DNA of 64,000 nt from Salmo salar (Eukaryota), in NCBI RefSeq assembly GCF_905237065.1, contig NC_059455.1:34160034-34224033 (forward strand), written 5' to 3'. The number at the start of each line of letters is the position of its first letter. Position 1 is the stretch's first letter. Shown here in pieces: positions 720 to 55,300 of this stretch. A program made the position numbers and the translations under genes. Under the pieces are notes generated by a model, which was given only the letters and a program-made list of their open reading frames with translations, did not search any database and had not been told where the DNA came from.

Positions 720-2425
720 TACATCGTGAACGTAACCCTCGATCCAGTTACTGTAACCTTTCAGTTGGACTGCCCTGAGCAGTCTGTCGTTTTCATCTGC
801 CCATTTATCAATATAAGTTGATGTATGAGAGCATAAGTTGTTCTGGACGACTCACGCTCTCCGTAGCCGATATAAGACCTTCAAACAGGGCAACATTCAC
901 AAGGTCGCAGGGCCAGACGGATTACCAAGATGTGTACTCCGAGCATGCGCTGACCAACTGGCAAGTGTCTTCACTGATATTTTCAACCTGTCCCTGACCG
1001 AGTCTGTAATACCAACATGTTTCAAGCAGACCACCATAGTCCCTGTGCCTAAGAACACCAAGGTAACCTGCCTAAATAACTACCGACCCATAGCACTCAC
1101 GTCTGTAGCCATGAAGTGCTTTGAAAGGCTGGTCATGGCTCACATCAACACCATTATCCCAGAAACCCTAGACTCACTCCAATTTGCATACCGCCCCTAC
1201 ACATCCACAGATGATGCAATCTCTATTGCATTCCACACTGCCCTTTCCCACCTGGACAAAAGGAACTCCTATGTGAGAATGCTGTTCATTGACTACAGCT
1301 CAATAATGCAGCACCATAATGCCCACAAAGCTCATCACTAAGCTAAGGACTCTGGGACAAAACACCTCCCTCTGCAACTGGATCCTGGACTTCCTGATGG
1401 GCCGCCCCCAGGTGGTAAGGGTAGGTAACAACACATCTGCCACACTGATCCTCAACACAGGGGCCCTTCAGGGGTGCGTGCTTAGTCCCCTCCTGTACTC
1501 CATGTTCACCCATGACTGCATGGCCAGGCACGACTCCAACACTATCAATTTTGCCACGACAACAACACAACAGGCCTGATCACCGACAACGAAGAGACCT
1601 GGCAGTGAGGTGCCAGGATAACAAACTCTCCCTCAATGTGATCAAGACAAAGGAGATGATTGTGGACTACAGAAAAAGGAGGACCGAACACGCCCCCATT
1701 ATCATCGACTGGGCTGTAGTGGAGCAAGTTGAGAGCGCCTATTGACATGACAACGCCTATTCCCCCTCAGGAGGCTGAAAAGATTTGGCATGGGTCCTCA
1801 GATCCTCAAATAATTCTACAGCTGCACCATCGAGAGCATCCTGACTGGTTGCATCACGACCTGGTATGCCAACTGCTCGGCCTCCGATTGCAAGGCACTA
1901 CAGAGGGTAGTGCGTACGGCCCAGTACATCACTGGGGCCAAGCTTCTTGCCATCCAGGACCTCTATACCAGGCGGTGTCAGAGGAAGGCCCAAAGAATTA
2001 CCAAAGACTGCAGCCACCCTAGTCATAGACTGTTCTCTCTGCTACCGCACAGCAAGTGGTACCAGAGCGCCAAGTCTAGGTCAAAAAGGCTTCTTAACAG
2101 CTTCTATGACCAAGCCATAAGACTCTTGAACAGTTAATCAAATGGCTACCCGTACTATTTGCATTGTCCCCACCCCCATTTTTACGCTGCTGCTACTCTC
2201 TGTTTATTATCCATGCATAGTCACTTTACTTCTACCTACATGTACATATTACCTCAATTACCTCGACTAACCGGTCACCCCGCACATTTACTCTGTACCG
2301 GAACCCTCTGTATATAGCCTCGCTACAGTTATTTTATTGTTGCTTCTTAATTTCTTTTTTTAACTGCTTTGTTGGTTAAGGGCTTGTAAGTATGCATTTG
2401 TTGTATTTGGCACGTGACAAATAAA
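720..2425 (+). mobile_element. L2/CR1-like LINE, 5'-truncated, comprising reverse transcriptase and 3' UTR.
   Basis: Frame-shifted ORFs 838..2137 carry RT motifs ([82 protein letters not shown]). The 3' end reads '...gacaaataaaattcgatttg'. It is homologous to the copies at 56120..59700 and 62905..63560. Confidence 0.8.
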
Positions 2426-3961: not shown

Positions 3962-6425
3962 TCACCTTTATTTAACCAGGTAGGCAAGTTGAGAATAAGT
4001 TCTCATTTACAATTGCGACCTGGCCAAGATAAAGCAGATTGACACATACAACAACACAGAGTTACACATGGAGTAAAACAAACATACAGTCAATAATATA
4101 GTAGAAAAATAAGTCTATATACAAAGTGAGCAAATGAGGTGAGTGAAGGGAGGTAAAGGCAAAAAAGGTCATGGTTGCGAAGTAAATACAATATAGCAAG
4201 TAAAACACTGGAATGGTAGATTTTCAGTGGAACAAAGTGCAAAGTAGAAATAGAAATAATGGGGTGCAAAGGAGCAAAATAAATACAGTAGGGGAAGAGG
4301 TAGTTGTTTGGGATAAATTATAGATGGGCTATGTACAGGTGCAGTAATCTGTGAGCTGCTCTGACAGCTGGTGCTTAAAGCTAGTGAGGGAGATAAGTGT
4401 TTCCAGTTTTAGAGATTTTTGTAGTTCGTTCCAGTCATTGGCAGCAGAGAACTGGAAGGAGAGGCGGCCAAAGGAGGAATTGGCTTTGGGGGTGACCAGA
4501 GAGATATACCTGCTGGAGCGCGTGCTACAGGTGGGTGCTGCTATGGTGACCAGCGAGCTGAGATAAGGGGGAACTTTGCCTAGCAGGGTCTTGTAGATGA
4601 CCTGTAGCCAGTGGGATTGGCAACGAGTATGAAGCGAGGGCCAGCCAACGAGAGCGTACAGGTCACGGTGGTGGGAAGTATATGGGGCTTTGGTGACAAA
4701 ACAGATGGCACTGTGATAGACTGCATCCAATTTATTCAGTAGGGTATTGGAGGCCATTTTGTAAATTACATCGCCGAAGTCAAGGATCGGTAGGATGGTC
4801 AGTTTTACGAGGGTATGTTTAGCAACATGAGTGAAAGATGCGTAGAGGTGGATCAGAGAATCACCAGCAGCAAGAGCATCATCATTGATGTATACAGAGA
4901 AAAGAGTCGGCCCAAGAATTGAACCCTGTGGCACCCCCATAGAGACTGCCAGAGGCCCGGACAACAGGCCCTCCAATTTGACACACTGAACTCTATCAGA
5001 GAAGTAGTTGGTGAACCAGGCGAGGCAATCATTTGAGAAACCAAGGCTGTTGAGTCTGCCGATGAGGATGTGGTGATTGACAGAGTCGAAAGCCTTGGCC
5101 AGGTCAATGAATACGGCTGCACAGTATTGTTTCTTATCGATGGCGGTTAAGATATCGTTTAGGACCTTGAGCGTGGCTGAGGTGCACCCATGACCAGTTC
5201 TGAAACCAGATTGCATAGCAGAGAAGGTGCGGTGGGATTCGAAATGGTTGGTAATCTGTTTGTTGGCTTGGCTTTCGAAGACTTTAGAGAGGCAGGGTAG
5301 GATAGATATAGGTCTGTAGCAGTTTGGGTCAGGAGTGTCCCCCCCTTTGAAGAGGGGGATGACCGCAGCTGCTTTCCAATCTTTGGGAATCTCAGACAAC
5401 ACAAAAGAGAGGTTGAACAGGCTAGTAATAGGGGTTGCAACAATTTCGGCAGATAATTTTAGAAAGAAAGGGCCCAGATTGTCTAGCCCGGCTGATTTGT
5501 AGGGGTCCAGATTTTGCAGCTCTTTCAGAACATCAGCTGACTGGATTTGGGAGAAGGAGAAATGGTGAAGGCCTGGGTGAGTTGCTGTGGGGGGTGCAGT
5601 GCTGTTGACCGGGGTAGGGGTAGCAGGTGGAAAGCATGGCCAGCCGTAGAAAAATGGTTATTGAAATTCTCAATTATAGTGGATTTATCAGTGGTGACAG
5701 AGTTTCCTATCCTCAGTGCAGTGGGCAGCTGGGAGGAGGTGCTCTTATTCTCCAAGGACTTTACAGTGTCCCATAACTTTTTTGAGTTTGTGTTGCAGGA
5801 AGCAAATTTCTGCTTGAAAAAGCTAGCCTTGGCTTTTCTAACTGCCTGTGTATATTGGTTTCTAACTTCCCTGAAAAGTTGCATATCATGGGGGCTGTTC
5901 GATGTTAATGCAGAACGCCACAGGATGTTTTTGTGTTGGTTAAGGGCAGTTAGGTCTGGAGAGAACCAAGGGCTATATCTGTTCCTGGTTCTAAATTTCT
6001 TGAATGGGGCATGCTTATTTAAGATGGTGAGGAAGGCATTATTTTTTTAAATAACCAGGCATTCTCTACTGAAGGGAAGAGGTCAATATCCTTCCAGGAT
6101 ACCCGGGCCAGGTCGATTAGAAAGGCCTGCTCGCTGAAGTGTTTCTGGGAGCGTTTGACAGTGATGAGTGGAGGTTGTTTGACCGCTGACCCATTACGGA
6201 TGCAGGCAGTGATCGCTGAGATCTTGGTTGAAAACAGCAGAGGTGTATTTAGAGGGCAAGTTTGTTAGGATGATATCTATGAGGGTGCCCGTGTTTACGG
6301 CTTTGGGGTGGTACCTGGTAGGTACATTGATAATTTGTGTGAGATTGAGGGCATCAAGCTTAGATTGTAGGATGGCTGGGGTGTTAAGCATGTTCCAGTT
6401 TAGGTCACCTAGCAGCACGGGCTAT
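3962..6425 (-). mobile_element. L2-like LINE of a second subfamily with endonuclease and RT. An (AT)n simple repeat at 3948..3961 abuts the element's 3' tail.
   Basis: Minus ORF 6194..6418 is an APE-type endonuclease (LLGDLNWNMLN...INVPTRY). ORFs 4329..5402 plus 5159..5884 are RT (YRPISILPCLSKVFE, FRTGHGCTSA, AAVFIDLAKAFDSVNH, VPQGSILGPTLFSVYIND). The 3' UTR motif 'cttggccaggtcgcaattgtaaatgagaac..cctggttaaataaagg' ends in (AT)7. Confidence 0.75.
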
Positions 6426-6503: not shown

Positions 6504-8880
6504 TTACATAAAAACTATGCACTTATGAACTATATGTTCCATCTGGTATGAGACAACAAACTTGTGTGTGGATCCCCTGGGTATGCGGGTATCGTGTACT
6601 GAGACACTGGACTCTCTCCGATGTGAGTTTTCTGATGTGACTTCATACCAGAATGCTGGGGGAAGCATTTCCCGCACTTGTAGGGTTTCTCCCCACTGTG
6701 GATCATGTCTGACCAGGTTGCACAGCTTGGTGAAACTCCTGCCAAACTGTTCGCATGGGTTAACAGTTTCTCTCCGGTGTGACTCCGGAGGTGTTCTTTG
6801 AGCTGGCAGAAGGTGCAGCTGAAACGCCTCTCGGTGGTGCCACCTGATCTCCACTGAGTCCTCATTCTCTTCACCATGTTAAAACTACTGTGACTCAGGC
6901 TGTATCCAGAGAAGGTGGAGGTGGTGGCCATGTTTGACCCTGTCACACACTCACTCAATCTCACTGTTGCTTCTGAAGCCCTGTATTGATGCTACCTTGG
7001 CTGTAGAGCTAAACTATTTCCTTTATTATTTGAGTTTAGCCTCTCACTGCTCTGTCCCTCTGGCATCTGTTGTCTAGTCTCATCAGCCAATGTCCTGACA
7101 TGTATTTTCATGTGTTTTGCAGCACTGAACATGTTAGCATGTGGTTTCCATATAGAAGAGTGAAGCGATGGCCCTACTTCATCTGTCATAGTAGAAACAG
7201 ATGGCAGCCCACTATGAGATGGGAAAATTGAGATATTCTGAGAGTACTCTTCTGCGGAATGAAAGGAGAAATCTGGGTGGCCATCAGGGTCAGTGTCTCT
7301 GCCTGGATCCACAGAGGTCCACAGCTGCCCATCAGACTCATCCATAACAAACTGGTCAGGACCTGCCAGGGTCGTGGTCTGATCCAGCTCCTCCTCTTTC
7401 ACCATCACTAGGTCTAGGAAGTCCTCGTCCTCATCTGGCTGGTGCTGCTCTGAACACCTTTGTAGATGCGAGCTGGGGTGTGCCTGGTTCCTCTGGACGA
7501 TCAGAATTGGGGTAATGTTTTACTGAGTGTTCAGGAGATATGTTGGGTTGTGTGATGAAGTCCTCATCACAGTGCTGTTGCTCAAAGGATGGTGGTTTCC
7601 CAGGCTTGAAACCAGATTCTAAAGATTTGGGTATAAACATTAAGAAACATTACAAAAGACCCTTAACAGTTGCAAAACATGACTGCTTTAGAACTGACAC
7701 CACACCCACACAGTCTTCCATAGACAGACAGAGCAGTGCCCCTTATGGTCACACCCACCCTCTCCAGTGATCCTGAGCTCTTCCTGAAAATCAGTCTTCC
7801 ACACATCCTCTGTCTCCTCATCTTTGATCAGTATGGGTTCAGTCTCCACTCTCTGCTCCACATCTGTAGGCTGTAACAGGGACTGAGGTTATTACTCTGG
7901 ACACACACCATATATGCATTTATATTACCTTTATTCAACCAGGAAAATCCCATTGAGACACAGTCTATTTTGCAAGGGAGACCTGGCCAAGAAGGCAGCA
8001 GCAATCAATACATTACAACACTTAAAACATACAATACAATCCAGCCTACAGGAAACATTTACACTCCTCCTGAACAGAGTTTTGTACTAGAGTTTTAAAG
8101 TAATTGAGAGGCACTAGACTACTACATCTAGTTGAAGCATACTTTGTAGAAAATGTCATGCCTCTGGTGCACAATAAAGAAGGCAGTCTTGCCTAACTCA
8201 GTAACAGCCCTGGGGACTTTAAGCGGAAACCACCTAGTAGACCGGGTCTGGTAACTGCTAGCGATGAAGAAAAGCAGGTTACAGAGATAAAGAGGGAGTT
8301 TACCCAGAAGGGGTATATGAACATATATCTAACACTTTTCATACTCATGAATCACACAAAAGCAAAAACATTCTACTGATAATCCAATATCAGAATTGAT
8401 CCAAGAGGCCAGCCAGGTCTCTGTAATTGTAAAAGGTGATGTATCACACCTGGGGTTGAGAGTCCTCCTCAACAGCCAGCTCTTCGTCTCTGCACTGTGA
8501 GGTACTCCTCTGCTTGTTCAAAACAATCTTGACTGGATATGAAGATCTCTCTGATGCCATGAGGTAAAAAAAGGGAAAATAATTGTGTTCAGTCAAATAT
8601 TAGGGCTATTCACACATTTGCTTTTTGCATATACAATCAATTTAACATAAATAACACAACTACCTTGTCTCCTGACTCGTCCTCGTGTCTTCTTCAGCTC
8701 GCTCTCCATCATTTGACACTTCCTTTTCAGTACATCAATATCTCGCTGACTTTGGACCATTTCCAAAAGTATAACAGCACAGCTATCATCTACACGATTG
8801 TTTATTTCTGTTAGAGCTGCTTTATTTAGCCAATACCTCCAGAATGGATACCAACTGCGCCTGAAAATTGCTGCTGGACA
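6504..8880 (-). pseudogene. Decayed tandem paralog (gene A) of the C2H2 zinc-finger gene B.
   Basis: Exon-1, exon-2 and exon-3 homologs of gene B are all present, at 8665..8878, ~7745..7875 and 6530..7440. The exon-1 homolog has an in-frame TAA after 'MSSSNFQAQLVSILEVLAK' plus a frameshift. The finger region has deletions and frameshifts, reading '[29 protein letters not shown]' where gene B has '[38 protein letters not shown]'. The body is split into ORFs 6530..6964 and 6992..7408. A ~440 bp insertion sits in intron 1 (7900..8340), and the upstream promoter region differs from gene B. Confidence 0.6.
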
Positions 8881-9399
8881 TAATGTCCAGCCCAAATTAC
8901 AGATTTGTATTCTCTGTGTGAAGTGAATAGTTGACAATTTCCAAGCTAATGTGCAATAAACAATCCGTAGCAGTTGATAAAAGGCAACTATGTGACCGTG
9001 TTCGAGAGCATCAAAACAGTGATGTATCATGGGTAAATTGTGACTGACTGATATACAAATAATATTGAGTAGTTATTTATGTTGCAATGTTTTTTGTAGA
9101 TCAGTCAGTCTCCACACGCTAGTAATGGCATCTTTATGTGGGCAGAATACGAATGGAGGTTTTTTGGGGGGGATAAATGCCAAAAATAAGGTATATGGTA
9201 GACACAGGCGTATAAGATCTTATGTTTTGTTCTATAAAATATTCTTAATCAGCTAACGTCACTATGTGAATGTATGTAATTTTAAAAAAGCACATAAAGG
9301 CTTTATAATTCATAAATGGCATGTTAACTGACTGCGGTTATCTCATAGAGCAAAATGTAGAAGATCTCCTAAGCCTGTGTTAACCCTCAGACCTTATTT

Positions 9400-10823: not shown

Positions 10824-11943
10824 AGACTACATTAAACTTGTGTGTTGATCCCCTGGGTATGCGGGTATCATGTACTGAGACACTGGACTCTCTCCTATGT
10901 GAGTTCTCTGATGTGACTTCATACCGGAGCGCTGGGGGAAGCATTTCCCACACTGTGTGCACTTGTAGGGCTTCTCTCCACTGTGGACCACAGCATGTCT
11001 GATCAAGTTGCACTGTTTGGTAAAACTCCTGCCACACTGTTCACAGGTGTACGGTTTCTCTCCAGTGTGACTTCGGAGGTGTTCTTTTAGCTGCCAGAAA
11101 CGCGGGAAGCTCTTCCCACAGAAGGTGCAGCTGAAACACCTCTCGGTGGTGCCGCCTGATCTCCACTGAGTCCTCATTCTCTTCACCATGTTAAAACTAC
11201 TGCGACTCAGGCTGTATCCAGAGAAGGTGGAGGTGGTGGCCATGTTTGACCCTGTCGTGCACTCACTCAATCTCACTGTTGCTCCTGAAGCCCTGTATTG
11301 ATGCAGTCTTGGCTGTAGAGCTAAACTATTTCCATCATTATTTGAGTTCAGCATCTCACTGCTCTGTCCCTCTGGCATCTGTTGTCTAGTCTCATCAGCT
11401 AATGTCCTGACATGTCTTGTCATGTGTTTTGCAGCACTGAACATGTTAGCATGTGGTTTCCATATAGAAGAGTGAAGCGATGGCCCTACTTCATCTGTCA
11501 TAGTAGGAACAGATGGCAGCCCACTATGAGATGGGAAAATTGAGATATTCTGAGAGTACTCTTCTGTGGAATGAAAGGAGAAATCTGGGTGGCAGACAGG
11601 GTCAGTGTCTCTGCCTGGATCCACAGAGGTCCACAGCTGCCCATCAGACTCATCCATGACAAACTGGTCAGGACCTGCCAGGGTCGTGGTCTGATCCAGC
11701 TCCTCCTCTTTCACCATCACTAGCTCTAGTGAGTCCTCATCTGGCCGGTGCTGCTCTGCGCTGAACACCTCTGTAGATGTGAGCTGGGGTGTTCCTGGTT
11801 CCTCTGGACGATCAGAATTGGGGTAATGTTCCACTGAGTCTCTGGGAGATATATTGGGTTGTGTGATGAAGTCCTCATCACAGTGCCGTTGCTCAAAGGA
11901 TGGTGGTTTCCCAGGCTTGAAACCAGACTCTAAAGATTTGGAG
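10824..11943 (-). CDS. Zinc-finger gene B, last coding exon. It has a linker region plus three C2H2 fingers, with the stop at 10824..10826.
   Basis: ORF 10827..11987 reads (...SLESGFKPGKPP...[84 protein letters not shown]...). The acceptor is at '...tctccaaatctttag|agtctgg'. Confidence 0.65.
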
Positions 11944-12100
11944 ATAAACATAAAATAGAGATGACAAAAAACCCTTAACAGTTGCAAAATATGACTGCTT
12001 TAGAACTGACTGTGTGTATGTGCACTCCATACGCCAGAACATAAAACACCAATGTAATTTGGAAAGTGCATACCACCATACCCACACAGTCTTCCATAGA

Positions 12101-12242
12101 CAGACAGAGCAGTACCCCTTATGGTCACACCCACCCTCTCCAGTGATCCTGAGCTCTTCCTGAGGGTCAGTCTTCCACACATCCTCTGCTGTCTCCTCAT
12201 CTTTGATCAGTATGGGTTCAGTCTCCACTCTCTGCTCTACAT
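12101..12242 (-). CDS. Zinc-finger gene B, exon 2, an acidic linker.
   Basis: The minus-strand translation is (D)VEQRVETEPILIKDEETAEDVWKTDPQEELRITGEGG. The acceptor is 'cctacag|at' and the donor lies near 'GG|gtgtga'. It is conserved in gene A at ~7745..7875. Confidence 0.55.
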
Positions 12243-12629
12243 CTGTAGGCTGTAACAGGGACTGAGGTTATTACTCTGGAAACACCATGTGTAATGCTTT
12301 TCATACTCATGAATCACACAAAAGCAGTAAATTGTCCTGATATTCCAATATCAGAATTGATCCAAGAGGTTAGGTCTCTGTCATTTTAAAATGTGATGTA
12401 TCACACCTTGGGTTGAGAGTCCCCTTCAACAGCCATCTTGCTGTCTCTCCACTGTGAACTACTCCTCTGCTTGTTTAAAACTATCTTGACTGGATATGAA
12501 GATCTCTCTGGTGCCATGGGATAAAAAACGGGAAAATACTAGTAATTGTATTCAGTCAAATATTAGGGCTATTCACACATTTACGTTTTGCATATGCAAT
12601 CAGTTTAACATGAATAACACATCAACTAC

Positions 12630-12843
12630 CTTTTCTCCTGACTCGTCCTCGTGTCTTCTTCAGCTCGCTCTCCATCATTTGCCACTTCCTTTTCAGTACA
12701 TCAATATCTCGCTGGCTTTGGGTCATTTCCATACGTATAACAGCACAGCTATCATCAACACGATTGTTTATTTCGGCTAAAGCTGCTTTAGCTAATACCT
12801 CCATAATGGATATAAACTGCGCCTGAAAATTGCAGCTGGCCAT
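12630..12843 (-). CDS. Zinc-finger gene B, exon 1, with ATG at 12841..12843. It encodes the shared N-terminal domain.
   Basis: Translation is MASCNFQAQFISIMEVLAKAALAEINNRVDDSCAVIRMEMTQSQRDIDVLKRKWQMMESELKKTRGRVRRK. The donor is 'aaaag|gtagttg' with phase 1. The same domain opens gene 3, MFQQNMTNCVTFQTKLSSVMDVLAKAAVAEISKMFDDGFAVLRLEM..ENEIESLKRQL. Confidence 0.65.
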
Positions 12844-16434: not shown

Positions 16435-18019
16435 TATACTGCTCAAAAAAATAAAGGGAACACTAAAATAACACATCCTAGATCTGAATGAATGAAATAA
16501 TCTTATTAAATACTTTTTTCTTTACATAGTTGAATGTGCTGACAACAAAATCACACAAAAATAATCAATGGAAATCCAATTTATCAACCCATGGAGGTCT
16601 GGATTTGGAGTCACACTCAAAATTAAAGTGGAAAACCACACTTCAGGCTGATCCAACTTTGATGTAATGTCCTTAAAACAAGTCAAAATGAGGCTCAGTA
16701 GTGTGTGTGGCCTCCACATGCCTGTATGACCTCCCTACAATGCCTGGGCATGCTCCTGATGAGGTGGCAGATGGTGTCCTGAGGGATCTCCTCCCAGACC
16801 TGGACTAAAGCATCCGCCAACTCCTGGACAGTCTGTGGTGCAACGTGGCGTTGGTAGATGGAGCGAGACATGATGTCCCAGATGTGCTCAATTGGATTCA
16901 GGTCTGGGGAACGGGTGGGCCAGTCCATAGCATAAATGCCTTCCTCTTGCAGGAACTGCTGACACACTCCAGCCACATGAGGTCTAGCATTGTCTTGCAT
17001 TAGGAGGAACCCAGGGCCAACCGCACCAGCATATGGTCTCACAAGGGGTCTGAGGATCTCATCTCAGTATCTAATGGCAGTCAGGCTACCTCTGGCGAGC
17101 ACATGGAGGGCTGTGCGGCCCCCCAAAGAAATGCCACCCCACACCATGACTGACCCACCGCCAAACCGGTCATGCTGGAGGATGTTGCAGGCAGCAGAAT
17201 GTTCTCCACGGCGTCTCCAGACTCTGTCACGTCTGTCACGTGCTCAGTGTGAACCTGCTTTCATCTGTGAAGAGCACAGGCCGCCAGTGGCGAATTTGCC
17301 AATCTTGGTGTTCTCTGGCAAATGCCAAACGTCTTGCACGGTGTTGGGCTGTAAGCACAACCCCCACCTGTGGATGTCGGGCCCTCATACCACCCTCATG
17401 GAGTCTGTTTCTGACCGTTTGAGCAGACACATGCACATTTGTGGCCTGCTGGAGGTCATTTTGCAGGGCTCTGGCAGTGCTCCACCTGCTCCTCCTTGCA
17501 CAAAGGCGGAGGTAGCGGTCCTGCTGCTGGGTTGTTGCCCTCCTACGGCCTCCTCCACGTCTCCTGATGTACTGACCTGTCTCCTGGTAGCGCCTCCATG
17601 CTCTGGACACTACGCTGACAGACACAGCAAACCTTCTTGCCACAGCACGCATTGATGTGCCATCCTGGATGAGCTGCACTACCTGAGCCACTTGTGTGGG
17701 TTGTAGACTCCGTCTCAAGCTACCACTAGAATGAAAGCACCGCCAGCATTCAAAAGTGACCAAAACATCAGCCAGGAAGCATAGGAACTGAGAAGTGGTC
17801 TGTGGTCCCCACCTGCAGAACCACTCTTTTATTGGGGGTGTCTTGCTAATTGCCTATAATTTTCACCTGTTGTCTATTCCATTTGCACAACAGCATGTGA
17901 AATTTACTGTCAATCAGTGTTGCTTCCTAAGTGGACAGTTTGATTTCACAGAAGTGTGATTGACTTGGAGTTACATTGTGTTGTTTAAGTGTTCCCTTTA
18001 TTTTTTTGAGCAGTGTATA
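16435..18019 (-). mobile_element. Tc1-like transposon family B, copy 1, near full length with a degenerate transposase.
   Basis: The IRs read 'tatactgctcaaaaaaataaagggaacac' and 'gtgttccctttatttttttgagcagtgtata'. Minus ORFs 16695..17042 and 17236..17763 are transposase with the DDE C-terminus (FLLMQDNARPHVA...[16 protein letters not shown]) and the HTH N-terminus. It is 95%+ identical to copy 2 at 23654..25131. Confidence 0.8.
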
Positions 18020-19440
18020 TACGGTGCATTCGGAAAGTATTCAGACCCCTTTACTTTTTTCCACATTTTATTACATCACAGCCTTTTCCAAAATTGATAA
18101 CATTTTTTAAATATTTTTTTTTAACACTCAATACCCCATAATGATAAACCAAAAACAGGTTTAGAATTTTTTGCTAGTTTATTGAAAATAAACAACTGAA
18201 ATATCACATTTACATAAATATTCAGACTCTTTACTCAGTACTTTGTTGAAGCACCTCTGGCAGCGATTACAGCCTTGAGTCTTCTTGGGTATAACGCTAG
18301 AAGCTTGGCACACCTGTATTTGGGGAGTTTCTCCCATTCTTCTTTGCAGATCCTCTCAAGCTCTGTCAGCTTGGATGGGGAGGGTCGCTGCACAGCTATT
18401 TTCAGGTCTCTCCAGAGATGTTCGATCAGGTTCAAGTCTGGGCTCTGGCTGGGCCACTCAAGGACATTTAGAGACTTGTCCCAAAGCCACTTCTGCGTTG
18501 TCTTGGCTGTGTGGTTAGGGTCGTTGTCCTGTTGGAAGGGGAACCTCCACCCCAATCTGAGGTCCTAAGCGCTCTGGAGCAGGTTTTCATCAAGGATCTC
18601 TCTGTACTTTGGGCCGTTCATCTTTCCCTCGATCTTGACTAGTCTCCCAGTCCCTGAAAAACATCCCCACAGCATGATGCTGCCACCACCGCGTTTCACC
18701 GTAGGGATGGTGCCAGGTTTCCTCGAGACGTGACGTTTGGCCTTTAGGCCAAAGAGTTTGATCGTGACTAGAGAATCTTGTTTCTCATGGTCAAAGTCCC
18801 TTAGGTGCCTTTTGGCAAACTCTAAGATGGCTGTCATGTGCCTTTTACTAAGGAGTGGCTTCCGTCTGGCCACTCTACTATTAAGGCCTGATTGGCGGAG
18901 TGCTGCAGAGTTGGTTGTCTTTCTGGAAGGTTCTCCCATCTCCACAGAGGAGCTCTGTCAGAGTGACCATCAGGTTCTTGGTCACCTCCCTAACCAAGGC
19001 CCTTCCCTCCTGATTGCTCAGTTTGTCCTGGCAGCCAGCTCAAGGAAGTCTTTGTGTTTCCAAACTTCTTCCATTTAAGAATGATGAAGGCCACTTTGTT
19101 CTTGGGGACCTTCAATGCTGCAGAAATGTTTTGGTACACTTCCCCAGAGCTTTGCCTCGACAACAATCATGTATCGGAGCTCTACAGACAATTCCTTCGA
19201 CCTGATGGCTTGGTTTTTGTTCTGACATGCACTGTCAACTGTGGGACCGAATATAGACAAGTGTGTGCTATTCCAAATCATGGCCAATCAATTGAATTTA
19301 CCACAGGTGGACTCCAATCAGGATGTAGAAACATCAGGATGATCAATGGAAACAGAATGCACCTGAGCTCAATTTCTAGTCTTATAGCAAAGGGTCTGAA
19401 TACTTATGTAAATAAGCTATTTCTATTGGTATTTTTAATA
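18020..19440 (-). mobile_element. Tc1-like transposon family C, which abuts family B with no spacer.
   Basis: The IR starts 'tacggtgcattcggaaagtattcagacccctt' at 18020. Minus ORFs 18235..18555 (FQQDNDPNHTAKTTQKWL...[15 protein letters not shown]) and 18565..18945 are present. The right end is degenerate. Confidence 0.7.
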
Positions 19441-20084: not shown

Positions 20085-21320
20085 TACAGTAGTACTGATA
20101 GACTACATGACCAAAAGTATGTGGACACCTGCTTGTCAAACATCTCATCATGGGCATTAATATGAAGTTGGTCTCCCCTTTGCTGCTATAATAGCTTCCA
20201 GGCTTCTGGGAAGGCTATCCACTAGATGTTGGAACATTGCTGCGGGGACTTGCTTCCATTCAGCCACAAGAGCATTAGTGAGGTCGAGCACTGATGTTGG
20301 GCGATAAGGCCTGGCTTGCAGTCAGCGTTCCAATTCATCCCAAAGGTGTTCAATGGGGTTGAGGTCAGGGCTCTGTACAGGCCAGTCAAATTCTTCCACA
20401 CCGATCTCAACAAACCATTTCTCTATGGGTGCATTGTCATGCTGAAACAGGAAAGGGCCTGCCCCAAACTGTTGCCACAAATTTGGAAGCACAGAATTAT
20501 CTAATTCTATGCTGTAGCGGTAAGATTTTCCTTCATTGGAACTAAAAGGCCTAGCCTGAACCATGAAAAACATCCCCAGACCATTATTCCTCCCCCACCA
20601 AACTTTACAGTTGGCACTATGCATTGGGGCAGGTAGCGTTCTCCTGGCATCTGCCAAACCCAGATTCCTCCGTCGGACTGCCAGATGGTGAAGCATGATT
20701 CATCACTCCAGAGAATGCTCCAGAGTCCAATGGCGGCGAGCTTTACACCACCCCAGCCGACGCTTGGCATTGTGCATGGTGATCTTAGGCTTGTCTGTGG
20801 CTGCTTGGCCATGGAAACCCATTTCATGAAGCTCCCGACGAACAGTTCTTGTGCTGACGTTACGTCCTGATGCAGTTTGGAACTCTGTAATGAGTGTTGC
20901 AATCAAGGACAGACAATGTTTTACACTCTTTGGCGGTCCCGTTCTGTGAGCAGTCCCGTTCTGCAGGGCAGAAATTTGACGAACTGACTTGTTGGAAAGG
21001 TGGCATCCTATGATGGTGCCACATTGAAAGTCACTGAGCTCTTCAGTAAGCCCATTCTATTGCCAATGTTTTCTATGGAGATTGCATGGCCCCCCCAAGC
21101 TCTGACAGCTACGTTAGAGGAACATTTTTACTTTCTATGCCTGTGATATGTGGTTGTCCCACCTAGCTATCTTAAGATGAATGCACTAACCTTTAGTCAC
21201 TCTGGATAAGTGCATCTGCTAAATTACAAAAATGTCAATGCAAGAATGTGTGGCTGAAATAGCAGAATCCACTAATTTGAAGGGGTGTCCACATACTTTT
21301 GTATATACAGTGTATATCTG
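20085..21320 (-). mobile_element. Tc1-like transposon family E. It ends ~60 bp downstream of the TEP1 stop codon.
   Basis: Minus ORFs 20322..20696 ([31 protein letters not shown]) and 20703..20906 (HTH) are present. The right terminus is '...gtgtccacatacttttgtatatacagtgtat'. The same family occurs at 50865..51760 and 59716..59790. Confidence 0.7.
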
Positions 21321-21379: not shown

Positions 21380-42905
<21,526 letters not shown>

Positions 42906-44147: not shown

Positions 44148-44430
44148 ATGTTCCAGCAGAATATGACTAATTGTGTTACTTTTCAAACCAAATTAAGCTC
44201 AGTTATGGATGTGTTGGCCAAAGCTGCGGTGGCAGAAATAAGTAAAATGTTCGATGATGGGTTTGCTGTTTTACGCTTGGAAATGTGCCGAAGAGAAAAT
44301 GAAATTGAATCCTTGAAAAGACAATTATTGTTTATGGAGAACGAACGGCAAACGACGAGGTCCAAAACGCAAGAAGCAGGCTGTTCTTCTACATGCTCGT
44401 CGTCTTCCAGCAGAACGGAGGAGGGACAGG
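44148..44430 (+). CDS. Zinc-finger gene 3, exon 1, encoding the shared N-terminal domain.
   Basis: Translation is MFQQNMTNCVTFQTKLSSVMDVLAKAAVAEISKMFDDGFAVLRLEMCRRENEIESLKRQLLFMENERQTTRSKTQEAGCSSTCSSSSSRTEEGQ. The donor is 'cagg|gtgagcc' in phase 1. Confidence 0.7.
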
Positions 44431-44683: not shown

Positions 44684-45612
44684 GGTCCAAGGGGTCTGAT
44701 GAGGATGCTAGTGAAAGGACTTCATTTGAGCAGAACGCCAGAGAGAAAAATGACCAACTGGATCGAAATAGACCACAGCCACATGCAGAAGAAGTAGAGG
44801 GGCTTGATGAACAGTACAGGTCTGGCCACAGAGAGAAGGGTAGTGGACTAGAGTTAGTGAAGAGAGAGCAAGCGGAGGAGTATGATGTTATTTCACTACA
44901 TTCATCAGGAAGTGAACATGGCACAGAGATATCAGATCATGAGGAAACTGAGTTTGCTGTGGATGAGAGAGAGAGTCAGCTCTGGGCGTCTTTAACAGAG
45001 CGCAACTGTGACTCGGAGGGTCCAGATTGCCATAAGTGCACAGAACAATATCCACTGGATCAAGATACAGACATACAGCTCATTCAAAGTGCAGTGGAGG
45101 GTCTCAATAGTGGTCCATCATCAGAGATGGGTGACATTAACAGAGTTATGACAGAAGAGATGCGAGCACAGTCTGTTTGGAATGTGAGAAGAAGTACCCC
45201 TACAGATTTGGCTCAGGCACAGCCAGGACAGCACAGAGAAACCATGCACCCAGAGAGAAGGCAGGATGGGACAACTACCAGAGTGCTGTCAGACAAACAA
45301 ACGCTAGCCAATGAGGGTGCAGCATATTCCAACATTTGGTTAAACAATGTATTTTCACTTGCCCCAAATAGTTTTCACTCAGCAAAAGTACCCCCAAGGA
45401 GAACCCTAGCAAGGGAGAAGTGGTTTGTTTGCTCCTTTTGTGGAAAGAGCTTTGACCGGTTTGGTCACCTGGAGATGCATCAGCGGATTCATACGGGAGA
45501 GAAACCGTACAGCTGTGTCACGTGTGGGAGGTGTTTTGCTCAGCAAAGTAATCTCCGCACACACCAGCGAGTACACAGGGCACTCACAACAAACCAAACT
45601 GTCTACTGATCC
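44684..45612 (+). CDS. Zinc-finger gene 3, exon 2, with two C2H2 fingers and a stop at 45610..45612.
   Basis: The acceptor is 'ccactttcag|gg'. The frame joins ORF 44857..45609, reading ...[79 protein letters not shown]. It shares the phase-1 intron architecture of gene B. Confidence 0.7.
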
Positions 45613-54273: not shown

Positions 54274-55300
54274 TTGGAGTGTGTCCACTTTTGGTTATCT
54301 TACCCTAACGATGTAACTAAGAATTTTCCCCCTTCTGATAACCAGGTGGCGAATCGCATCTCTGCATGTCTGGCAGACATATCAGTGTGGATGACGGATC
54401 ACCACCTCAAGCTGAACCTCGGCAAGACGGAGCTGCTCTTCCTCCCGGGGAAGGACTGCCCTTTCCATGATCTCGCCATCACGGTGGACAACTCCATTGT
54501 GTCCTCCTCCCAGAGTGCTAAGAGCCTCGGCGTGACCCTGGACAACACCCTGTCGTTCTCCGCTAACATCGAGGCAGTGACCCGATCCTGTAGGTTCATG
54601 CTATACAACATTCGCAGAGTACGACCCTGCCTTACACAGGAAGCGGCGCTGGTCCTAATCCAGGCACTTGTCATCTCCTGTCTGGATTACTGCAACTCCC
54701 TGTTGGCGGGGCTCCCTGCCTGTGCCATTAAACCCCTACAACTCATCCAGAACGCCGCAGCCCGTCTGGTGTTCAACCTTCCCAAGTTCTCTCACGTCAC
54801 CCCGCTCCTCCGCACACTCCACTGGCTTCCAGTTGAAGCTCGCATCTGCTACAAGACCATGGTGCTTGCCTACGGAGCTGTGAGGGGAACGGCACCTCCG
54901 TACCTTCAGGCTCTGATCAGGCCCTACACCCAAACAAGGGCACTGCGTTCATCCACCTCTGGCCTGCTGGCCCCCCTACCTCTGCGGAAGCACAGTTCCC
55001 GCTCAGCCCAGTCAAAACTGTTCGCTGCTCTGGCACCCAAATGGTGGAACAAGCTCCCTCACGACACCAGGACAGCGGAGTCAATCACCACCTTTCGTAG
55101 ACACCTGAAACCCCACCTCTTTAAGGAATACCTGGGATAGGATATAGTAATCCTTCTAACCCCCCCCTCCCCCCCAAAAAGATATAGATGTACTATGTAA
55201 AGTGGTTGTTCCACTGGATATCATAAGGTGAATGCACCAATTTGTAAGTCGCTCTGGATAAGAGCGTCTGCTAAATGACGTAAATGTAAATGTAAACTAT
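54274..55300 (+). mobile_element. L2-like LINE RT C-terminus plus 3' end with a SINE-like tail.
   Basis: ORF 54274..55140 reads ...LGKTELLFLPGKD...FMLYNIRRVRPCLTQEAALVLIQALVISCLDYCNSLLAGLP...PKWWNKLPHDTRTAESITTFRRHLKPHLFKEYLG. The 3' UTR ends 'tgtaagtcgctctggataagagcgtctgctaaatgacgtaaatgtaaatgtaaa'. Confidence 0.75.

Follow-up and report, generated by a model that had tools for sequence, protein, structure and literature searches.

A conserved N-terminal domain shared by short-array zinc finger genes of Salmo salar and other teleosts, with a possible role in self-association

The 64 kb stretch of Salmo salar DNA analysed here (assembly GCF_905237065.1, contig NC_059455.1, positions 34,160,034 to 34,224,033 of the forward strand; hereafter the window, with positions counted from its first letter) contains three C2H2 zinc finger (ZNF) loci, referred to as gene 3, gene B and pseudogene A, which share a block at the N-terminus of the encoded protein. 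This block is a real, strongly conserved domain of approximately 65 residues, which is found at the N-terminus of a very large family of ZNF proteins with short finger arrays across teleosts. It belongs to a known category, that of the N-terminal ZNF-associated interaction modules, as a distinct family that is unnamed in the literature searched. With moderate confidence we favour the view that it is a self-association module, similar in role to SCAN or ZAD; dimerisation, like any role in transcription, is what we infer for it.

Domain copies and gene structure in the window

Copies of the domain were sought by tblastn with the peptides of gene 3 and gene B and by applying a family hidden Markov model (HMM) to the six-frame translation. 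Three copies only were returned by tblastn, at 44148-44351 (+), 12843-12655 (-) and 8881-8689 (-), all remaining matches having E >0.1, and the HMM recovered the same three sites and no others, with E-values of 7e-33, 7e-29 and 9e-18 plus 6e-5. Translation of 44148-44330 (+) gives exactly MFQQNMTNCVTFQTKLSSVMDVLAKAAVAEISKMFDDGFAVLRLEMCRRENEIESLKRQLL, while the minus-strand frame opposite contains many stops; the second copy matches the gene B peptide at 100% and the third is divided between two frames. Over 61 residues, the domain of gene 3 shares 47.5% identity with that of gene B (tblastn E 9e-14 against the 64-kb target). An earlier note on this DNA had described a shared N-terminal block of about 55 residues in all three ZNF loci; translation, tblastn and the family HMM all confirm the block itself, but its real length is about 65 residues, the domain extending about 7 codons beyond the end given there, to about 44351. 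The features belonging to the three loci are as follows.

44148..44351, plus strand: gene 3 N-terminal domain, residues 1-68 (translation, tblastn, family HMM E 6.9e-33 at 44163-44354)
44148..44430, plus strand: gene 3 coding exon 1, domain and Ser-rich linker, 283 nt, phase-1 donor CAGG/GTGAGC (sequence; ortholog alignment)
44684..45609, plus strand: gene 3 coding exon 2, acidic linker with VKREQAEE box and two C2H2 fingers at about 45430-45576 (sequence; spliced frame open)
12655..12843, minus strand: gene B N-terminal domain, residues 1-63 (tblastn 100% to the gene B peptide; HMM E 7.3e-29)
10827..12843, minus strand: gene B, intact, four exons 12843-12630, 12507-12407, 12249-12135 and 11929-10827 (GT-AG splice model, open frame)
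8689..8881, minus strand: pseudogene A N-terminal domain remnant (HMM match split over two frames, its first piece running into a stop; compared with gene B at the DNA level)
6554..8881, minus strand: pseudogene A, exon remnants 8881-8664, ~8569-8456, ~7882-7760 and ~7619-6554 (tblastn of the gene B ortholog P0086, split frames)

Gene 3, for which the family-canonical start is an internal Met at 44163, is spliced from its two coding exons into a product of 403 residues with C-terminal C2H2 fingers at residues 344 and 372. Compared with its ortholog P0074 (O. mykiss XP_021469426), exon 1 is 86% identical over residues 2-94 and exon 2 is 88.8% identical over residues 94-393. Gene B encodes a product of 510 residues with three C2H2 fingers (about 11129-10899), identical at 447 of 520 positions to its ortholog P0086 (O. 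gorbuscha XP_046176692), and its exon 1 comprises 214 nt and ends in the phase-1 donor AAG/GTAGTT. At the start of gene B exon 2 (12538-12508, minus strand) the upstream acceptor used by the Oncorhynchus ortholog (…RRKGFYPMLSERSS…) has apparently been lost (cccg, no AG); an in-frame AG 21 nt downstream gives …RRKERSS…, with 7 residues fewer than in the Oncorhynchus ortholog. A weaker donor, at 12643, gives an alternative open model of the gene.

Pseudogene A is a tandem duplicate of gene B lying about 4 kb downstream, and it does retain the same block, as had been proposed, in the form of two HMM pieces in different frames at 8689-8881 (-). A 4-nt insertion in the domain (GCTAAATAAAGCAGCT vs GCTAAAGCAGCT) results in a TAA at codon 20 and a frameshift, and the last exon has an additional frame break and stop, leaving separate open reading frames (ORFs) at 6992-7408 and 6530-6964; the exon-1 donor is kept (CAAG/GTAGTT at 8664, phase 1). 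At all three loci the first coding exon encodes the domain and ends in a phase-1 donor. The claim of a phase-1 intron at the same relative position in each gene holds for the phase in all three but not for the position, gene 3 having 23 extra linker codons ahead of its exon-1 donor relative to gene B.

Gene 3 and gene B are old paralogs in a salmonid-type genome, because for each of them a separate group of orthologs exists in Oncorhynchus, Salmo and Coregonus, with identities to the window genes of about 86-89%. Between the two genes, identity is 47% in the domain vs about 29% for the remaining protein. The automatic names given to family members are inconsistent and misleading: within one ortholog group RefSeq uses ZNF165, ZNF436, ZNF24-like, ZNF200-like, ZNF232-like and 'gastrula zinc finger protein 5-1', further unrelated best-hit names on orthologs of gene 3 or gene B include 'ZNF263-like' and 'ZNF782-like', and other members are named 'SCAN domain-containing' or 'KRAB and SCAN domains 8-like', yet neither SCAN nor KRAB is detectable in them.

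Size, species range and architecture of the family

A profile built from 15 sequences was searched against 1.84 billion cluster representatives, yielding 1105 at E<=1e-3 and 689 at E<=1e-10. The matches nearly always begin at residue 1, and upon local re-scoring of the listed family matches and of cluster members the domain was found to start within residue 10 in 183 of 268 instances. Species range was assessed from the 150 of the 1105 matches that were listed, 30 representatives of which were looked up for source names, with further names added by other searches. Every named source is a teleost, about 35 species in all, including Elopomorpha (Anguilla, Albula, Megalops, Gymnothorax, Aldrovandia, Synaphobranchus), Osteoglossomorpha (Paramormyrops, Brienomyrus), Clupeiformes (Sardina, Alosa, Coilia, Denticeps), Characiformes and Gymnotiformes (Hoplias, Acnodon and Brachyhypopomus, one of these being gymnotiform), salmonids, and percomorphs (Pleuronectes, Centropristis, Plectropomus, Dissostichus, Sphaeramia, Brachionichthys and goodeids). 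No cypriniform and no non-teleost was present among these named sources. A second homolog search, made with an alignment, returned mainly unnamed exon-1 ORFs and added little on taxonomy. The domain is thus conserved well beyond this locus, from eels to percomorphs, and its description as fish-specific is upheld as far as sampled.

C2H2 fingers were recognised in 49 of the 84 full-length members, with a median of 4 fingers and with 3 or 4 fingers in 35 of the 49. Many fingerless full-length relatives still have the N-terminal domain and an acidic linker; the fingerless members may be truncated, fused or incomplete gene models, or true fingerless paralogs. As for genomic arrangement, in Pleuronectes platessa a stretch of 22 kb holds three differently diverged copies and in Albula a stretch of 5 kb holds two, in both cases beside finger-encoding genes, so that clustering of the genes carrying the domain, suggested by the earlier note as something to be checked, is seen in these two fishes as well as in the window. 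Neighbouring locus tags or accessions in Gymnothorax, Anguilla, Coregonus and mormyrids, together with giant fused gene models, also point to clustering.

Some members carry more than one copy. In P0060, P0070, P0110, P0140, P0141 and P0148 two domain copies stand back to back at the N-terminus, the first often consisting of the first helix only, and in P0034, P0036, P0038, P0046 and P0052 there are repeated units of domain plus linker, representing either genuine repeats or neighbouring tandem genes fused in the gene models.

Relationship to catalogued domains

Neither window peptide has a Pfam match even at E<=10, coiled-coil noise aside, and Pfam finds no KRAB, SCAN or BTB in sets of 15 or 31 domain sequences or in the 84 full-length relatives, which agrees with the earlier judgement that the block is none of these three. 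A profile search of the PDB gave keratin-type coiled-coil noise only (E>=0.09) and a fold search gave no match to KRAB, SCAN or ZAD.

It is possible, though doubtful, that the block is already catalogued as Pfam DUF7247 (PF23905) and that the window proteins are divergent members of it. Several family members match this profile in one constant register, in which profile positions 61-104, that is its C-terminal ~45 positions, are aligned to domain residues 8-50, and one of them, P0034, exceeds the gathering score of 27 bits with 30.7 bits. The matches of P0046, P0063 and P0043 have E 0.003-0.03, sub-threshold members score 15-19 bits, and 4 of 31 diverse domain sequences match (E>=0.0064). Against this identity, gene 3 and gene B have no match at E<=10 and only 3 of the 84 full-length members match at E<=1e-3, most of the family being below threshold or unmatched. 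Nothing in the domain corresponds to the first ~60 profile positions, which apparently represent an upstream tail motif of multi-repeat proteins. No function is attached to DUF7247, and literature searches with its name or with the core motif strings returned nothing relevant, while a broader search on teleost ZNF-associated domains returned FiNZ and ZAD papers only. PF23905 is the sole catalogue link, weak and mostly sub-threshold, and the domain is otherwise essentially uncatalogued.

Anatomy and predicted structure of the domain

Conservation reaches its maximum in the near-invariant motif (I/V)M(E/D)VLAKAAVAEI, with V18, L19, A20, K21, A22, A23, E26 and I27 invariant in the first alignment. 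Residues ~7-31 form an amphipathic helix that is rich in Ala, Val, Leu and Ile and the hydrophobic face of which is very broad. An a/d heptad fits residues 35-65 (difference between a/d and other positions 0.52, P=0.006), with Leu at the d positions 37, 51 and 58 and with M/V/I41, I/N48, L55 and L62 at the a positions. Judged from sequence, this pattern, including the Ile/Asn alternative at the central a position, would be the signature of a dimeric leucine zipper; a Fourier-type test for 3.5-residue periodicity was not significant. The four-heptad, leucine-zipper-type helix comprises residues ~37-65 and follows a D-D-G/S hinge and an alternating VLRLEM; of 183 instances, 161 have Gly or Ser at position 33, as would be compatible with a hinge.

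When given an alignment of 31 sequences, AlphaFold2 returned one unbroken helix over residues 2-65 with a predicted local distance difference test score (pLDDT) of 96.6. The helix and coiled-coil prediction proposed in the earlier note therefore came out positive for helix, with a significant a/d heptad in the second half only. As modelled, a single helix of this length could not be stable alone. P0038 is a natural protein that carries the domain twice, and in the best model out of five both copies show a helix at 7-31, a strand at 35-43 and a helix at 45-91; pLDDT is 66-89 across the domain and 66-74 in the strands. Because there are only two strands in the model, those of the two copies must pair. 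The strand corresponds to the conserved alternating segment (A/V)VLRLE(M/V)xR, and a strand form would explain the conservation of L39, which a two-stranded zipper does not. Both structural readings, if correct, imply that the domain is buried against another chain.

Possible self-association or cofactor binding

In the mechanism that we favour, the domain would form homo- or heterodimers among clustered paralogs, and the dimer would unite proteins with 2-4 fingers each, allowing a longer or composite DNA site to be recognised, as with SCAN, BTB and ZAD elsewhere. With only 2-4 fingers available, pairing may be the simplest route to useful DNA specificity. Effector activity would more plausibly reside in the acidic psi-K-x-E boxes of the linker.

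These linker boxes, of the form psi-K-x-[E/D] and followed by acidic residues, resemble the SUMO consensus. Among the 84 members 243 were observed, compared with 47.8 expected from composition shuffles, and at least one was present in 82 of the 84. In the window, the gene 3 linker (44684-45430) has VKREQAEE at residue 153 and the gene B linker (12249-12135 plus 11929-11129) has ILIKDEETAED and LVMVKEEELDQ.

Parallels are provided by SCAN in vertebrates and ZAD in arthropods, which are likewise N-terminal, ZNF-associated, located ahead of the finger exons and found in lineage-expanded, clustered genes, and which act as homo- or heterodimerisation modules, the function proposed for the domain here. 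SCAN is a five-helix domain-swapped dimer and ZAD a zinc-coordinating fold; the domain described here, in contrast, has no sequence or fold match to either, is built of a single long helix or of two, with a leucine zipper as one half, and lacks a Cys4 motif. It also differs from bZIP-type zippers (such as those of GCN4 and of the PKG N-terminus) in having no basic region, DNA binding being left to distal C2H2 fingers, and in that a conserved hydrophobic helix and a possible beta segment come before its zipper.

Several observations weigh against self-association as formulated here. Strand pairing between the copies in the P0038 model is its sole indirect sign, and the helix-strand-helix arrangement occurs in one of the five models only, with 3 sequences in the alignment and pLDDT 66-74 in the strand; the two AlphaFold2 answers, moreover, disagree on residues 35-43. 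Residues 7-31 do not fit a simple heptad (P=0.8), and the broad hydrophobic face of the first helix could equally bind a different partner protein. Pfam recognises no finger in 35 of the 84 full-length members, so the domain may not be confined to proteins that bind DNA, though fused or truncated gene models may account for this. Its absence outside teleosts, finally, is an absence among named matches (150 of 1105 listed, 30 looked up).

The main rival to self-association, which we regard as rather unlikely, is that the block is a cofactor-recruitment domain comparable to KRAB in function, its helix building a heteromeric coiled coil or helical bundle not with a second copy of itself but with a co-repressor such as the coiled coil of TRIM33 or TRIM24. 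The first helix has a near-invariant hydrophobic surface of unusual breadth, for which a two-stranded zipper gives no explanation, and KRAB itself binds the coiled coil of TRIM28. Teleosts have neither TRIM28 nor canonical KRAB-ZNFs, and the role of cofactor in fish has been proposed to fall to TRIM33 (PMC10547256, PMC11603059). The domain shares with KRAB and KRAB-like modules its helical nature, its N-terminal position on ZNFs, a possible partner-binding surface and its occurrence in ray-finned fish. Similarity to KRAB was nevertheless found neither by Pfam nor by fold search, and the short arrays (median 4 fingers) are unlike the long arrays typical of repressors that track transposable elements (TEs). 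A 'KRAB-like' ZNF family of ray-finned fish has been proposed by Carotti et al. (PMC9101882, PMC11603059), with the actinopterygian pattern A25 L27 Q29 R37 L45 E48 L49 and with 1-2 genes reported per species, also in gar, bichir and sturgeon. This residue pattern, searched as a regular expression, has no match in any register among 215 sequences (family matches and cluster members), and none of the listed KRAB-like accessions coincides with a named family member, the two families having been compared by residue pattern and by accession only. The domain family is in addition large and seen only in teleosts.

Distinction from FiNZ and from local duplication

Wells et al. 2023 (PMC10547256) define FiNZ as a Glu-rich stretch of 28 residues that stands at the N-terminus and occurs in cyprinids only, and the earlier note had tentatively equated the block with it. 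The resemblance is real only in generic terms: both are N-terminal blocks on C2H2 ZNF genes of fish, both lie in their own exon upstream of the finger exon or exons (here in gene 3 and gene B), an arrangement common to KRAB as well, and both occur in clustered genes. The search for FiNZ was seeded with a FiNZ sequence, the first seven residues of which were confirmed by the translation-blocking morpholino of PMC10547256, which back-translates to MAFIKEE. It returned 211 exon-1 ORFs, and among the best 120 of these the named sources are all cypriniform (Leuciscus, Onychostoma, Cirrhinus, Labeo, Pimephales, Sinocyclocheilus). The consensus of the retrieved exons, MAFIKEESEDMKIEExFRVKHEDTEEQT, has 28 residues.

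Comparison of the family profile with the FiNZ profile by hhalign gave a probability of 0.1% (E 0.55, 1 aligned column), and the FiNZ HMM found nothing in the six-frame window (best score -3.7) and gave E>0.07 for all family proteins. Whereas FiNZ is short, Glu-rich and composed of psi-K-x-E repeats, the domain here is ~65 residues long, hydrophobic and zipper-like (L 12%, A 11%, E 10.5%, V 9%). FiNZ is restricted to cypriniforms, while the domain occurs in the other teleost orders sampled and none of its named members is cypriniform. FiNZ genes, finally, have long finger arrays and number ~700 copies on zebrafish chromosome 4, compared with mostly 3-4 fingers in the members here. At the sequence level these results refute the correspondence, and almost no credence can be given to the idea that the block is FiNZ, or a salmonid form diverged from it, and marks ZNFs that repress TEs as those of zebrafish do.

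FiNZ is itself built of three psi-K-x-E boxes and shows no significant HMM similarity to the family linkers. A FiNZ-like acidic box in these linkers (ILIKDEETAED etc.) was considered and rejected, the FiNZ HMM giving insignificant partial matches only, which leaves a compositional likeness.

It is equally hard to credit that the similarity merely reflects recent local duplication or a transposon-borne ORF with no functional domain: pseudogene A and gene B, 4 kb from each other, are evident tandem duplicates, and fragments of Tc1 elements and long interspersed nuclear elements (LINEs) abound in the window, but gene 3 and gene B are only 47% identical in the domain and each has orthologs in Salmo, Oncorhynchus and Coregonus, the domain keeps the same N-terminal position from eels to percomorphs, and no transposase or reverse-transcriptase domains were found by Pfam in the 84 family members scanned.

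Other features of the window

The remaining annotated features are mobile-element fragments and one unrelated gene.

16990-17763 and 24101-24766: Tc1/mariner-type element, two near-identical copies about 7.1 kb apart (HTH_Tnp_Tc3_2 and DDE_3 fragments)
18568-18945 (-), 20325-20902 (-), 23812-24258 (-) and 30932-31381 (+): further Tc1 fragments
838-1338 (+) and 4332-5402 (-): LINE-type reverse-transcriptase fragments (RVT_1)
54274-55137, plus strand: ORF resembling the C-terminal part of a LINE-type element, no Pfam match
27345-27965, minus strand: long open exon with WD40 repeats (Pfam WD40, E 5.6e-22), an unrelated gene between the two ZNF loci

Implications for teleost zinc finger genes

In conclusion, we tentatively propose that this is an undescribed ZNF dimerisation domain, seen only in teleosts, ranging from Elopomorpha to Percomorpha and defining one of the largest teleost ZNF families, which would be a non-cyprinid counterpart, in evolutionary role, of KRAB, SCAN, ZAD and FiNZ, with effector activity supplied by SUMO-consensus boxes in the linker. 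The mechanism is one that we infer, and as a concept it is unlikely to surprise the specialist.

Since FiNZ covers only cyprinids and teleosts lack the KRAB-ZNF/TRIM28 system, what organises the ZNFs of the remaining ~30,000 fish species has been left largely unaddressed. The domain marks more than 1000 sequence clusters in teleosts, yet it lacks a name and a working Pfam model, and searches by motif or accession retrieved no paper on it. A named profile would immediately improve the annotation of fish genes. The family is also a tractable test case for the way in which short-array ZNFs may gain specificity by pairing. Its short arrays argue against a simple role as TE repressors in an arms race, and its biology may therefore differ from that of both KRAB and FiNZ proteins.
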